From the NCBI GenBank assembly GCA_040767085.1, contig JAXGPF010000019.1:1-49604 (forward strand): a stretch of DNA of 49,604 nt, in the 5' to 3' direction. The position numbers are program-made. This document shows positions 9,001-12,000 of this stretch, piece by piece (the stretch's first letter is position 1; each line of letters opens with the position of its first letter). This DNA is from Kiritimatiellia bacterium (GTDB lineage Bacteria > Verrucomicrobiota > Kiritimatiellia > JAAZAB01).

Positions 9001-12000
9001 TGAAAGCGTTCGATTTCTGGCATACCGGGCTGAGCGCCGAATACGTGTTGTTTCCCGGCCAGGTGGTCCATGGCAGCCTGAAATTGCTGGTCGGCGGGGG
9101 CCATCTCTCCGTCCAATCACAGGACGCAGGCTCCGACTCCGCCACCGTCTTCGTCGCCGTCCCGCAGGCCAGCATCATGGTCAGCCTGACCAGGACCATC
9201 GAACTGGGTTGCGGCGCAAGTTACCGCTTCGTTAACGGCTCGAATCTGGACCGATGGGAAAGCTCCGACTTGAGCGATTTCGCCGGCAGCGTCTTCCTGC
9301 GCTGGACGGAAGCGCCGTGACTTGCATTGAGCGGAATTCAGATGAATTGCGCTCCAAACGCGCGTTTTGAAATTCGCTCAGGTGATTGCTTTCACTATTG
9401 ATTATGCCTGCTGACAAAATTTTACTTGGAGTTGACATTGGCGGCACGAAAATTGCCGTCTGCGCCGGCGATGCCGCCGGCAATATCCGCGCCGCGCAAC
9501 GATTCTCCGTTGCCGAGGTCGCCGATAGTTATCCGGCCGGTTTGTCAAAAATCGTCGAAATGGCCCAGGCGGTTGTGGGCCAGGCCGGCCTGGCCATGCG
9601 TGATGTCGCCTCGGTGGGCATTGCCGCTCCCGCCCCCATGGACAACCGGCGCGGATTGCTGCTGGCGCCGACTAATCTCAAGGGCTGGGGAACAGCGCCG
9701 ATCGTCGCCGACCTGGCAGACCGCCTGGGCAAACCCGTCCGGATGTTTAATGACGCCAATGCCTGCGCCCTCGCCGAATTCCGGTTTGGCTGCGGGCGCA
9801 ACGTCAAAAACCTGGTTTATTTGACCAACAGCACTGGCATGGGCGGCGGCCTCATCATCAACGGCCAATTGCTGGAAGGTCCGGACGACACGGCCGGCGA
9901 AGTCGGGCATTTTGTCCTGGACCCCGCCGGACCGCCCTGCCCCTGCGGCTTAAATGGCTGTTTTGAGGCGTACTGCGGCGGACGTAACATGGCGCGGCGC
10001 ATCCAGGAACGGATCCGCGCGGGCGGCATCCAGACCCGCATTTTGGCCCATGCTGCCGGGCAAATTGACCGGATCGCCATGCCGGCTCTGCTGGCGGCGC
10101 TGCGTGAAAAAGACCCGTTCGCGCAGGAAGTGTGGGATGAATACGTGCTCCGCATGGCGCAAGGCATCGGCATCCTGATCATGACGCTCAACCCCGAACT
10201 CGTGGTGCTGGGCACCATCGCCATCCACGCGGGCGACCTGCTGATGGCGCCCCTGGCGAAACTCCTGCCCCGGTTTGCCTGGCCGGCGCCTTTAAAAACC
10301 TGCCGGATTGCCGTCAGTTCCCTGGGAACGGCCATGGGCGACTATGCCGCCCTTGCCGCCGCCATGGGTTGAATGCCGGCCGGCCGCGCGTCCCCGCGAA
10401 AATGTTGAAAAGTCTTGACTCTCCCTTGCCGGATGCTATCTTATTACCCGCTTTGTGTCGCTGTCAAAACCGGTTGGAGCGTGTCGTCCGGCATCCGCTG
10501 GGCGGTGGCGGCTTGGCCGGTTGGCATCCGATGCTCGGGCGCGGTGATTTCTCGGTAGCTCAATGGTAGAGTCCGGCGGTTGCCGGATTAACCACCAGGT
10601 TGCCGAAAAATAGTTTTGTTCCTCGGTAGCTCAATGGTAGAGTCCGGCGGTTGCCGGATTAACCACCAGGTTGCCGAAAAATAGTTTTGTTCCTCGGTAG
10701 CTCAATGGTAGAGTCCGGCAGTGGCCGGATTAACCACCAGGTTGCCGAAAAATAGTTTTGTTCCTCGGTAGCTCAATGGTAGAGTCCGGCAGTGGCCGGA
10801 TTAACCACCAGGTTGCCGAAAAATAGTTTTGTTCCTCGGTAGCTCAATGGTAGAGTCCGGCGGTTGCCGGATTAACCACCAGGTTGCCGAAAAATAGTTT
10901 TGTTCCTCGGTAGCTCAATGGTAGAGTCCGGCAGTGGCCGGATTAACCACCAGGTTGCCGAAAAATAGTTTTGTTCCTCGGTAGCTCAATGGTAGAGTCC
11001 GGCAGTGGCCGGATTAACCACCAGGTTGCCGAAAAATAGTTTTGTTCCTCGGTAGCTCAATGGTAGAGTCCGGCGGTTGCCGGATTAACCACCAGGTTGC
11101 CGAAAAATAGTTTTGTTCCTCGGTAGCTCAATGGTAGAGCGGGTGGCTGTTAACCACTAGGTTGCAGGTTCGAGCCCTGCCCGAGGAGCCACTTTTTGAT
11201 CTTTCAATGACATGTTATGTCTATGTCATTGTATCTTTGCAAAGCGGTCGGTTTTACGTAGGCCAAACCGACAACCTGCTTCTGCGTTATAAGCGTCACG
11301 CCAGTGGCACGGTGCATTCCACCAAGCATTTGCTCCCGCATGTTGTAGGCCATGTGGAAGAATACCCATCGCGTAAAGACGCCATGCGTCGCGAAAAGCA
11401 GCTCAAAGAACATGCAGGCCGGGCATGGATTAGCGCCTGTGTTTTGCCCCTCGTCCGCGAGTGGTATGCGGTAGCTCAATGGTAGAGTCCGGCAGTGGCC
11501 GGATTAACCACTAGGTTGCAGGTTCGAGCCCTGCCCGAGGAGCCATTCGGTCGACAACTCGAACTTGCGGAACGGCAGGTTCGGCTTCCTTTTTCGCCCC
11601 GCCCCCGACGCCACCAGCCCGAAAGCCCCAACGTTTACGGGGTTCCGATGGATCGCCGTCCACTGCCCGACCACCCAGCCGACGGCCCGAAAAGCCCCAA
11701 GTTCGAGTTGTCTGCGTACTGGCAGTCTTTACTGGACTGGGCTCGAACTTGCTGGCCACGGCCAGATTTTCCACTGCCCGGCAGTGGAGATCCGGGCGTT
11801 TCCTGGCGGATTTATGGGACAAAACGGGATCGTGGGAGACGTTCAGATGGGCTGGAAGACCAGACCAAAGAATTTGCTGAACTTGACAAACACAACTTCC
11901 CGCCCCCTGCCACCTTGTGTGGCAGGAGCGGCGAGGTAATGGGAGGGGGGGCGGGCGGAACCTGGGCGGCGAGGCGAAGTAGGCTTTATGCGGCAGAACG

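Follow-up and report, generated by a model that had tools for sequence, protein, structure and literature searches.

Positions 10415-11594 of contig JAXGPF010000019.1 (C11) of a Kiritimatiellia bacterium are predicted to form one tRNA-Asn transcription unit occupied by a minimal Ssn-type nuclease cassette, a reading we consider reasonably probable. The loci of this family are, in our assessment, probably Ssn-like selfish cassettes that live in tRNA genes, with transcription reading through into them from the tRNA promoter. The Ssn family (SsnA of Neisseria meningitidis; cd10448) comprises 94-aa site-specific ssDNA nucleases guided by a hairpin, and its layout, NTS-ssnA-NTS or repeat-gene-repeat, has been likened to transposons (Chenal 2025, PMC11893778).

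Anatomy of the tRNA-Asn unit

In the window, that is, the whole 49,604-nt stretch of C11 that was analysed, ARAGORN found a single tRNA, tRNA-Asn(GTT), which is also the only intact tRNA-Asn of the genome (Table 1). It is followed by an ORF encoding a 92-aa GIY-YIG product (hereafter the C11 protein) and by a degenerate tRNA-Asn copy (the 3' module), and between the tRNA copies lies this ORF alone. These three parts had been reported in a first-pass annotation, and the ARAGORN, PF01541 and Rfam results in Table 1 show that they are real. The borders drawn there, 11117..11545, proved too narrow, as a tandem array upstream of the tRNA belongs to the same system (TRF: 10551-11139, period 71, 8.3 copies as assembled, 98% matches).

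Table 1. Features of the tRNA-Asn unit in C11
Feature	Position	Strand	Evidence
Promoter-like site TTGACT, 16 nt, TATCTT, upstream of the entire unit (putative)	10415..10442	+	Consensus scan
Eight tandem 71-bp 5' modules	10551..11116	+	TRF and sequence reading
tRNA-Asn(GTT) with encoded CCA	11117..11191	+	ARAGORN; Rfam RF00005, 70.9 bits
15-nt spacer between tRNA-Asn and ORF	11192..11206	+	Sequence reading
92-aa single-domain GIY-YIG nuclease gene (predicted)	11207..11485	+	PF01541, E 1.2e-12
3' module, degenerate tRNA-Asn copy	11469..11545	+	Rfam, 26.5 bits (11469-11537); sequence reading; exact repeats
Terminator-like hairpin and T-run directly after the 3' module (putative)	11559..11594	+	Consensus scan

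Each 5' module begins with positions 1-23 of tRNA-Asn, continues with the hairpin TCCGGC-(GGTT or AGTG)-GCCGGA and 18 tRNA-like bases up to the T stem, and ends in an AT-rich 14-nt tail; the eight hairpins start at 10572, 10643, 10714, 10785, 10856, 10927, 10998, and 11069. The 3' module resembles tRNA-Asn from about position 5-6, carries its hairpin at 11488-11503, and then has an intact T arm, 3' acceptor strand, and CCA. In both kinds of module, the hairpin stands where the anticodon arm of the tRNA would have its 5' strand and loop; in the Rfam alignment of the 3' module, a 24-nt insert falls at this arm. The D-arm of the 3' module encodes the six final codons and the stop of the ORF. Two independent DNA runs (X2 and X4) hold pieces identical to the 5'-module array, and contig X4 (11482-11652) runs from the 3' module into the downstream flank without a single difference; no independent read contig spans the array itself. 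An IS3-type element lies 0.8 kb downstream of the unit, and the nearest rve-domain protein belongs to that element.

The consensus scan suggests a transcriptional frame for the unit, with the cassette lying between the promoter-like and the terminator-like sites that bracket it. The stretch with the promoter-like site is also kept upstream of tRNA-Asn in a genome of the same genus (G086), while terminator-like sites were no more frequent in the scan than in shuffled sequences, which makes for weak support of the one listed. By sequence reading, the spacer holds no recognisable ribosome-binding site. Expression from the tRNA promoter had been put forward as an alternative reason for the linkage between nuclease and tRNA; because the cassette lies between the two sites flanking the tRNA unit, such expression is probably part of the same design rather than a rival to it. 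Among the read contigs, two come from RNA libraries, X15 (101 nt, identical to the array) and another located downstream of the 3' module, and neither is proof of transcription. No RNA contig covers the ORF, which we count against the reading as an Ssn-like cassette.

The C11 protein is a single GIY-YIG domain from a family under purifying selection

PF01541 spans residues 3-70 of the C11 protein, and residues Y6, Y17, R27, H31, E63, and K67, which include the GIY/YIG tyrosines and metal-binding residues, are invariant in 35 relatives. The AlphaFold model (pLDDT 96.7) consists of one domain with none extra, and its best PDB folds are UPF0213, Slx1, and I-TevI. The best PDB match by sequence was likewise UPF0213, at 25 bits; TIGR01453 scored 19.4 bits against a cut-off of 56, and searches of NCBIfam, PADLOC, and PHROGs gave weak GIY-YIG-type matches only. 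The absence of a DNA-binding domain had been raised against the cassette reading. The single-domain architecture stands, but as an objection it is answered by the 94-aa single-domain Ssn relative that reads an ssDNA hairpin (PMC11893778). The nuclease family is under purifying selection (dN/dS 0.04-0.22 in six diverged pairs), though single copies are broken: some are truncated or catalytically dead.

Four small GIY-YIG genes lie among partial tRNA copies in the genome

The PF01541 search of the genome returned the same four small GIY-YIG genes that had been listed earlier (on C11, C5, C2, and C28), of which the C2 gene is 3'-truncated, together with one 502-aa frame that is probably UvrC. tRNA-Asn(GTT), tRNA-Gly(CCC), and tRNA-Pro(TGG) are each single-copy among the 49 tRNAs of the genome, and a 45-nt tRNA-Pro 3' fragment precedes the C28 gene, both in agreement with the first-pass annotation. 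The distances of 16, 94, and 162 nt given there needed partial revision. At C2, the internal ATG 218408 does lie 162 nt after the tRNA, and at C11 the spacer is 15 nt; at C5, 94 nt marks the start of the domain, while ATG 121862 is 85 nt beyond the tRNA, whose 3' half is repeated only 9 nt before this ATG. Our own scan located partial tRNAs at 20 places other than tRNA genes; 14 of these places are no more than 1 kb from the four GIY-YIG genes, where 13 of 19 clusters had been counted before. The same genome also has an ORF-less leader behind tRNA-Pro(GGG).

Linkage to tRNA genes across genomes

The linkage to tRNA genes is real, strand-specific, and far above chance, and it extends over many tRNA identities and several phyla. 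A same-strand tRNA lay within 400 nt upstream at 56 of 99 distinct foreign loci, against an estimated chance rate of ~0.3% (about 50 tRNAs x 400 nt / (2 x 3.5 Mb)), which upholds the linkage claimed earlier; at 9 further loci of the 99, the tRNA was only just downstream, and at none was it on the opposite strand. By locus set, an upstream same-strand tRNA within this distance was present at 16/29 loci in set 1, at 15/29 in set 2 (with 6 more downstream only), and at 24/35 in set 3 (with 3 more downstream only). Because 10 of the 35 loci in set 3 repeat earlier ones, its count among new loci is 15/25. The search for related loci with an 8-sequence alignment draws from the subfamily of the C11 protein alone; loci from other classes gave 10/16. 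Thirty-four of the 99 loci have no intact tRNA nearby, about 14 of them being cut by a contig end, and this counts against the reading of cassettes in tRNA genes.

Two layouts were found, tRNA-ORF-module and module-ORF-tRNA. At many loci, the ORF starts 4-15 nt behind the CCA and has no ribosome-binding site. The cassettes measure about 0.3-0.45 kb, and their partial tRNA copies lie within 0-20 nt of the ORF. Since integration is known to leave partial tRNA duplicates at tRNA genes (PMC9897764), the copies could be ordinary attachment-site remnants of integrase islands or phages, with the nuclease genes as unrelated passengers, and the IS3-type element near the C11 unit might be cited in favour. 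We find this scarcely credible, given the small size of the cassettes, the absence of an integrase inside them, and the close spacing of ORF and copies. Moreover, integration duplicates the 3' part of a tRNA gene; it neither exchanges the anticodon arm for a conserved hairpin nor places 5' modules upstream.

A conserved hairpin occupies the anticodon arm of the partial tRNA copies

Flanking partial copies had been described for the loci in general, with no mention of their hairpin or of the Ssn family. In the subfamily of the C11 protein, they are indeed the rule, with partial same-strand copies at 41 of 50 tRNA-bearing loci, but in the other subfamily they occur at 1 of 17. Within the C11 protein's subfamily, the copies break at tRNA positions of about 25-28 and 44-47. 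A perfect stem of at least 6 bp was present in 67/84 modules compared with 135/1678 random 40-mers from the same loci, and the stem consensus, often TCCCGA..TCGGGA, is common to different phyla and tRNA types. At every locus examined, the modules are on the same strand as the tRNA.

The exact hairpin TCCGGCAGTGGCCGGA is confined to the C11 locus, and a loop-degenerate pattern gave 20 further matches on other contigs, with different loops. Genome-wide REP-like repeats were considered and set aside, the exact hairpins being local and the loop-degenerate patterns matching 20-odd unrelated places. A role of the module hairpin as an intrinsic terminator was ruled out because no T-run follows it.

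The modules might act as RNA, the co-transcribed pseudo-tRNAs being processing signals, stabilisers, or an RNA partner of the protein, somewhat as the omega RNA sits at the end of IscB/TnpB genes. They share the transcription frame and strand of the tRNA at every locus, the 3' module overlaps the end of the ORF, the ORF start without ribosome-binding site just past the CCA recurs at many loci, and X15 is an RNA-library contig, albeit of a kind that does not prove transcription. Yet SsnA, the tested relative, does not bind RNA (PMC11893778). Rfam 15 at permissive thresholds, applied to the C11 region and 17 loci, matched tRNA only; neither the modules nor the subfamily-A leaders fell into any other family. 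The modules are also unlikely substrates of RNase P or RNase Z, because the 5' modules have no T arm and the 3' modules no 5' acceptor strand. On balance, a function of the modules as RNA seems to us quite improbable.

The genes behave like cassettes

Members of the family occur in 74/101 genomes of the class and 143/301 genomes of the phylum, with one to nine copies each. At the tRNA-Asn sites of the same taxonomic family, we observed filled (G110), decayed (G050), ORF-less (G104), and empty (G113, G096, and G075) states, and the fillers belong to different subtypes. The C11 protein itself is absent from the same-genus genomes (0/4). In 401 class genomes, its relatives do not exceed 47% identity, the one exception being a 36-residue C-terminal match of 69% identity in G250. 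In G250, the 3' end of the ORF, 69% identical to that in C11, runs on into the D-arm sequence seen in C11, after which a TCCGGC hairpin begins. The same-genus comparison yielded no clean empty site at close range, because the tRNA is where those contigs end, and this weighs against the cassette reading. Tandem arrays have up to five copies, as in G179 with its five ORF-pseudo-tRNA units. The distribution is patchy and horizontally mixed: in the tree, rows from Chlamydiota and Lentisphaerota are nested within those from Verrucomicrobiota, and closely related proteins switch tRNA type. A tblastn search of plasmids with one relative found no match, and one with a second query found 12 records.

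Taken together, the filled, decayed, and empty sites, the tandem arrays, the mixing of phyla, and the inactivation of some copies support the conclusion that these genes behave like cassettes. Of the earlier proposal of a tRNA-associated selfish nuclease cassette, the linkage and the cassette-like behaviour are thus borne out, while nuclease activity and mobility stand as predictions.

Several of the same observations could be accommodated by a domesticated nuclease, which the host would keep to trim or restrict ssDNA at tRNA loci or to control recombination; the tRNA site would give steady expression, and the partial copies would be by-products of slippage or unequal crossing-over. The strong purifying selection, the catalytic residues kept in all 35 relatives, and the position of the unit inside a putative tRNA promoter-terminator frame are compatible with such a role, as are near-fixed orthologues in related species with the same downstream gene (loci L078, L079, and L088) and the host-level role of the related SsnA in Neisseria transformation (PMC11893778). 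It is harder to reconcile with the patchy distribution and variable copy number, with truncated or catalytically dead copies and ORF-less remnants, and with a tree that mixes phyla; nor does slippage explain why the same hairpin consensus appears at the same arm of many tRNA types. We regard domestication as unlikely.

A model for the spread of the cassette

GIY-YIG enzymes hydrolyse DNA and cannot join strands, so any movement of the cassette must depend on host recombination. We hypothesize the following course for an Ssn-like cassette living in a tRNA gene. The GC hairpin TCCGGC-N4-GCCGGA (in relatives mostly TCCCGA..TCGGGA) is the likely, putative recognition site, and its position within partial tRNA copies, at the place of the anticodon arm and on both sides of the gene, would reproduce the layout NTS-ssnA-NTS. 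The ORF would have no promoter of its own and would be co-transcribed by read-through from the tRNA promoter. The protein would then bind the hairpin in single-stranded DNA and nick a few bases 5' of it, within the tRNA-like D-arm. Repair could copy adjacent identical tRNA segments, leading to duplication of modules, as in the 8-copy array, or of whole cassettes, as in the tandem arrays of relatives. Finally, the arms identical to the tRNA (about 23-28 nt and 31-42 nt) may let the cassette recombine into a matching tRNA gene elsewhere; the target would be the highly conserved tRNA gene of another genome, and one intact tRNA copy would always survive.

A broader proposal is offered tentatively, as possible rather than probable: the loci may represent an undescribed class of mobile cassettes of ~0.3-0.45 kb that home into tRNA genes by means of a bare hairpin-reading ssDNA nuclease, tRNA-identical homology arms, and a hairpin-bearing pseudo-tRNA site, always regenerating one intact tRNA, and that have spread horizontally among phylum-level groups with at least nine different names.

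For the Ssn nucleases, described in 2025, these loci would provide a second, widespread context in which a role outside Neisseria becomes testable. They offer a well-defined candidate substrate, namely a tRNA-like strand that bears a single hairpin; naturally occurring sites in filled, amplified, decayed, and empty states; and a simple hypothesis to explain the spread of a 90-aa enzyme that lacks strand-joining chemistry. They would also account for a class of partial tRNA genes and of tRNA fragments in tandem array, which interrupt assemblies and mislead tRNA annotation, and their many enzyme-hairpin pairs may serve as a source of ssDNA tools.

Comparison with known systems

Like integrase-borne islands and prophages (Williams 2002, as cited in PMC9897764), the cassettes appear to use tRNA genes as landing sites. 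They differ in having no integrase, an insert of only 0.3-0.45 kb, a substituted anticodon arm, and 5' as well as 3' modules.

The free-standing GIY-YIG homing endonucleases of phages, such as T4 SegB in a tRNA gene cluster (PMC2330249, PMC13096335), share the adjacency to tRNA genes and the variable presence among relatives, and the segmental amplification of neighbouring DNA to which a phage nuclease has been tied (PMC13096335) parallels the tandem arrays. As with homing endonucleases, occupancy of one and the same site, the tRNA-Asn of the same taxonomic family, varies between filled and empty among relatives. However, the 92-aa protein does not combine a catalytic with a DNA-binding domain as I-TevI and the Seg enzymes do. 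Seg enzymes have DNA-binding domains, cut dsDNA, and act between co-infecting phages, whereas here a bare domain is found in bacterial chromosomes with hairpin modules.

REP/BIME elements with RAYT transposases and IS200/IS605 are named as Ssn analogues in the Discussion of PMC11893778. In both cases, a small gene is associated with hairpin repeats that multiply in its vicinity and are recognised (here, by prediction) in ssDNA; the difference is one of chemistry, REP/RAYT and IS200/IS605 relying on HUH tyrosine transposases with covalent intermediates and GIY-YIG enzymes on hydrolysis only.

UPF0213 proteins (YhbQ and YazA; PDB 1zg2 and 1ywl) have the same size and fold as the C11 protein and are its best PDB matches by both sequence and fold. 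To our knowledge, they have no hairpin or tRNA context. Their sequence match is weaker (25 bits) than that of an Azospirillum plasmid protein whose gene is flanked by four canonical SRM repeats (42 bits, 36% identity to the C11 protein), and the latter aligned to the family profile in hhalign with 99.1% probability (E 1.2e-18).

Of the known systems, the Ssn family comes closest. The SRM search pattern as published requires a GTC-containing 5' flank, and the type species of the class is reported as cd10448-positive by psiblast, not above a CDD score of 100, and as showing no SRM enrichment (PMC11893778). The main text of that paper makes no mention of tRNA. Against the reading as an Ssn-like cassette, the flanking repeats described here do not fit the published pattern: it had no match less than 1.5 kb from any of the four genes and 28 matches genome-wide, compared with 18-32 in three shuffles, and in loci L007-L109 it matched once, while the positive control L111 gave four matches. 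Other features are shared. Both systems have a single GIY-YIG domain of ~90-100 aa without a DNA-binding domain, a gene with GC-rich hairpin repeats on either side, and a repeat variant proper to each homologue. The 20-50-nt hairpin repeats on both gene sides that characterise Ssn loci are present at C11 as eight modules upstream and one downstream, and the hairpin cores are alike, TTCCCGCG..GCGGGAA in the NTS and TCCCGA..TCGGGA or TCCGGC..GCCGGA here. The Neisseria hairpins are dispersed in hundreds of copies, whereas the repeats here are local, a further point against the Ssn reading; unlike in Ssn, partial duplicates of the neighbouring tRNA carry the hairpin, and the gene lies within the tRNA transcription unit.

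Results

A GIY-YIG gene lies between partial copies of tRNA-Asn

The small gene of the window is enclosed by partial copies of the tRNA that precedes it (Table). The spacer between tRNA-Asn and the ORF measures 15 nt and lacks a ribosome-binding site, and at the other end the final six codons and the stop codon fall inside a degenerate second tRNA-Asn copy. This copy lacks approximately the first five bases of the acceptor stem and retains the D-arm, T-arm, 3' acceptor strand, and CCA, while a perfect hairpin (TCCGGC-AGTG-GCCGGA) substitutes for the 5' strand and loop of the anticodon arm. 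The same hairpin recurs in a tandem array upstream, whose units consist, in order, of the first 23 tRNA bases, the hairpin (loop GGTT or AGTG), 18 tRNA-like bases ending within the T stem, and an AT-rich tail of 14 bases; the final unit continues into the true tRNA-Asn. The first-pass annotation had described a locus of tRNA-Asn, ORF, and degenerate copy, all of which are present, but its borders miss the array. A ROK-family gene lies upstream of the whole unit and an IS3-type element 0.8 kb downstream, with no recognisable gene in the 750 bases between the terminator-like site and this element.

Coordinates of the features of the window and of the compared loci
Feature	Sequence	Position	Strand	Remarks
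Promoter-like site before array	window	10415-10442		consensus match only
Tandem array upstream of tRNA-Asn	window	10551-11139		71-bp unit, 8.3 copies as assembled, 98% identity
RNA-library contig (run X15)	window	10937-11037		101 nt, identical to two array units
tRNA-Asn(GTT)	window	11117-11191	+	sole tRNA in window; Rfam 70.9 bits
ORF, 92 aa	window	11207-11485	+	Pfam GIY-YIG match, residues 3-70, E 1.2e-12
Degenerate second tRNA-Asn copy	window	11469-11545		Rfam 26.5 bits
Terminator-like hairpin and T-run after downstream tRNA copy	window	11559-11594		consensus match only
IS3-type insertion sequence	window	12320-13503	-	HTH_Tnp_1 orfA and rve-domain orfB
Leader without nuclease gene, after tRNA-Pro(GGG)	C26, same genome	191270-191540
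Tandem units without nuclease gene, at tRNA-Met	C23, same genome	148820-149070		two 123-bp units
Partial tRNA-Arg	C14, same genome	32000
Partial tRNA-Ser-GCT	C16, same genome	1830
Partial tRNA-Gly-TCC	C22, same genome	233234
Partial tRNA-Thr-TGT	C7, same genome	85461
Subfamily A leader	L016	1313-1395
Subfamily A leader	L032	1910-1982
tRNA-Ser(TGA) with tandem ORF units	L143 (G179:C2)	1520300-1523400		five identical 399-bp units
Small GIY-YIG gene between sufB and sufC	L111 (Azospirillum lipoferum 4B plasmid AZO_p3)	255506-255799

As a test of the assembly, contigs from two independent DNA runs (X2 and X4) were compared with the window and showed no differences to pieces of the array, the ORF, or the boundary between the downstream copy and its flank. 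No contig of the sequencing runs compared spans the array, and its copy number is the figure of the assembly. The RNA-library contig on the array hints that the array may be transcribed, though DNA carry-over could also account for it, and no RNA-library contig lies on the ORF.

The protein retains the catalytic residues

Y6, Y17, R27, H31, E63, and K67, the GIY-YIG catalytic set, are invariant among 35 diverse relatives, and dN/dS values for diverged orthologue pairs range from 0.04 to 0.22. The model of the 92-aa protein (pLDDT 96.7) forms one domain with a long C-terminal helix; among solved structures, those that resemble it most are UPF0213 proteins, Slx1, At-HIGLE, the I-TevI catalytic domain, and UvrC. 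Some copies carry damage: one relative (locus L103) has Gly in place of the catalytic Glu, and the copy on contig C2 of the genome that holds the window is truncated.

Many related genes adjoin tRNA genes on the same strand

A profile of the four small proteins of this genome matched 74 of 101 class genomes, with one to nine matches per genome, and a wider profile matched 143 of 301 genomes of the phylum. In these searches, and in that with the window protein, many matches lay within ~100-400 nt of a contig end, a sign that short-read assemblies probably break at the repeated tRNA pieces of these loci. By record title, the relatives belong to Kiritimatiellia and other Verrucomicrobiota, Lentisphaerota, Chlamydiota, Omnitrophota, Acidobacteriota, Elusimicrobiota, Armatimonadota, Gammaproteobacteria, and Chloroflexota.

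Four samples of loci were examined with ARAGORN for a same-strand tRNA within 400 nt upstream. With the four-protein profile, 16 of the 29 best matches had such a tRNA, and with the window protein 15 of 29 did (two of these 15 had a tRNA on both sides, and six more loci had one just downstream). For public contigs found with eight subfamily proteins the count was 24 of 35, with three more downstream only, or 15 of 25 when the 10 duplicates of earlier loci are set aside; for other classes of the phylum it was 10 of 16. Pooling gave 99 distinct loci, 56 with the tRNA upstream, nine with a tRNA downstream only, and none with a tRNA on the opposite strand; in ~14 of the other 34, the contig ends within ~400 nt upstream. 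Simple arithmetic puts the chance rate for a random position at ~0.3%, and the samples are top matches that include related genomes, so that the counts are not independent trials.

Two subfamilies differ in layout

An 84-row tree contains a well-supported subfamily A (100/99), to which the genes on contigs C2 and C28 of this genome belong. The remaining rows, which include the window protein and that of contig C5, are called subfamily B; they form no supported clade, and A is nested among them.

Subfamily A genes lie 90-250 nt behind the tRNA. The spacer opens with a long hairpin whose base, in 12 of 14 folded leaders (z-scores -2 to -10), pairs with the CA or CCA of the tRNA end, and copies of this hairpin recur just past the stop codon in several loci. 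These leaders (spacers of loci L007-L035) share a covarying motif that matches no Rfam family: the long hairpin, with core CTTCG..CGAAG, begins at the tRNA CCA, and a second small hairpin (..GGCAAGCC..) stands directly before the ATG. Few loci (1 of 17) carry partial tRNA copies.

In subfamily B the gene and tRNA are 4-60 nt apart in most loci and exactly 9 nt apart in nine, and same-strand partial copies of the adjoining tRNA occur in 41 of the 50 loci with a tRNA. Breakpoints cluster at tRNA positions 25-28 and 44-47, which bound the anticodon arm, and a foreign hairpin lies between them: a perfect stem of at least 6 bp was found in 67 of 84 such modules versus 135 of 1678 40-mers drawn at random from these loci. 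The stem consensus sequences (TCCCGAcG..CgTCGGGA, TCCGCC..GGCGGA, and TCCGGC..GCCGGA) are shared across phyla and tRNA types; serine tRNAs instead carry the hairpins as insertions in the anticodon loop. One arrangement, that of the window, runs 5' module(s), true tRNA, ORF, 3' module; the other runs 5' module, an ORF starting inside a truncated T arm, and then the true tRNA. Arrays of 5' modules like that of the window occur in other lineages too, and whole units of ORF and pseudo-tRNA are repeated in tandem up to five times. At locus L143, tRNA-Ser(TGA) is followed by units that each carry a nuclease ORF and a pseudo-tRNA-Ser that bears hairpins in its anticodon loop and T loop and ends in CCA.

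Other loci of the same genome

A Pfam search of the genome returned one long frame, probably UvrC, and the same four small GIY-YIG genes that the first-pass annotation had listed. Among its 49 tRNAs, Asn-GTT, Gly-CCC, and Pro-TGG are single-copy. The C5 locus repeats the pattern seen in the window: a pseudo-tRNA-Gly whose cloverleaf junctions bear GC hairpins, the true tRNA, a second copy of the tRNA 3' half, the ORF 9 nt further on, and then more tRNA pieces alternating with hairpins. C2 and C28 share a separate design of tRNA-Pro part, ~130-nt hairpin-rich leader, and ORF, the tRNA being whole in C2, where the 3' end of the gene is gone, and reduced to its 3' 45 nt in C28.

Partial tRNAs occur at 20 places outside tRNA genes, 14 of them within 1 kb of the four GIY-YIG genes. 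Two more tRNA loci hold remnants that lack the ORF. On C26 a subfamily A leader directly follows tRNA-Pro(GGG), where a same-genus genome (locus L007) has the leader and an intact gene, and on C23 tandem units of leader-like hairpins and a 20-nt tRNA-Met piece lie immediately upstream of tRNA-Met (minus strand). Four places away from any GIY-YIG gene (C14, C16, C22, and C7) may be ordinary attachment-site remnants.

Gain-loss pattern of the probable cassettes

Occupancy of the tRNA-Asn site varies within the same family. A hairpin leader precedes a different GIY-YIG gene in one genus and a broken gene in another; a further genus has two leaders and no gene, and the tRNA is plain in three genomes. 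In the same genus as the window, a normal tRNA-Asn comes after the ROK gene, and the contig stops at that point. The window protein was found in none of four same-genus genomes, and no relative in 401 class genomes exceeds 47% identity to it, except for a 36-residue C-terminal match of 69% (genome G250, another genus), a fragment that opens its contig together with the same D-arm and the start of the TCCGGC hairpin. Close proteins in the tree adjoin different tRNAs: one clade spans Pro-GGG, Ala-GGC, Pro-CGG, and Pro-TGG neighbours, and Met-CAT is sister to Val-TAC. Rows of Chlamydiota and Lentisphaerota are nested among those of Verrucomicrobiota.

Discussion

The linkage of small GIY-YIG genes to tRNA genes noted in the first-pass annotation is confirmed and extended here, and its reading as a selfish tRNA-associated cassette is supported in part. 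With moderate confidence, we favor a selfish or semi-domesticated Ssn-like cassette resident in tRNA genes. Its locus anatomy, conservation, and gain-loss pattern were observed. Its biochemical and dynamic steps we infer as follows: the ORF would be expressed by read-through from the tRNA promoter, and the nuclease would recognise the hairpin in single-stranded DNA and place a nick within the tRNA-like D-arm. Adjacent identical tRNA segments would then serve as repair source, multiplying modules and cassettes, and recombination through the tRNA-identical arms could carry them to other genomes, one intact tRNA always being kept. Among the alternatives, we regard a nuclease kept by its host that only borrows tRNA promoters as unlikely, action of the pseudo-tRNAs at the RNA level as less likely still, and unrelated integrase scars as hardly credible.

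In the literature searched, no paper connects small GIY-YIG genes of bacteria with tRNA genes or with tRNA copies that carry a substituted hairpin; closest are accounts of T4 SegB and of the attachment-site remnants of integrated elements (PMC9897764). Chenal et al. 2025 (PMC11893778) describe Ssn proteins as GIY-YIG proteins of 94 aa and one domain (cd10448); in single-stranded DNA they attach to a hairpin repeat (NTS/SRM) and cleave immediately upstream. Their genes are flanked by repeats, a layout that the authors call identical to an insertion sequence, and the role of Ssn outside Neisseria is left open there. The word tRNA is absent from the main text of that paper and, in its non-PDF supplements, appears only in gene descriptions; its table lists the type species of the class as positive at the weaker cd10448 threshold only, with no SRM enrichment.

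The published degenerate SRM pattern does not fit the tRNA-linked loci, which differ from Ssn repeats in their repeat flanks and tRNA setting. A tblastn search found a small GIY-YIG gene (locus L111) within the sufB/sufC Fe-S cluster operon, flanked by four canonical SRM copies and with no tRNA. Its protein matches the profile of the tRNA-linked family with 99.1% probability and the window protein with 36% identity (42 bits, versus 25 bits for the best UPF0213 structure). A Sinorhizobium copy lies between hflX and mazG, flanked by other palindromes. The hairpin cores are also alike, the NTS of Ssn being TTCCCGCG..GCGGGAA and the stems of the tRNA-linked loci being of the TCCCG..CGGGA type. Because of these similar cores and the matches of the bridging L111 protein, the tRNA-linked GIY-YIG proteins are, judged by sequence, probably near relatives of Ssn at the least, and their loci have the Ssn layout.
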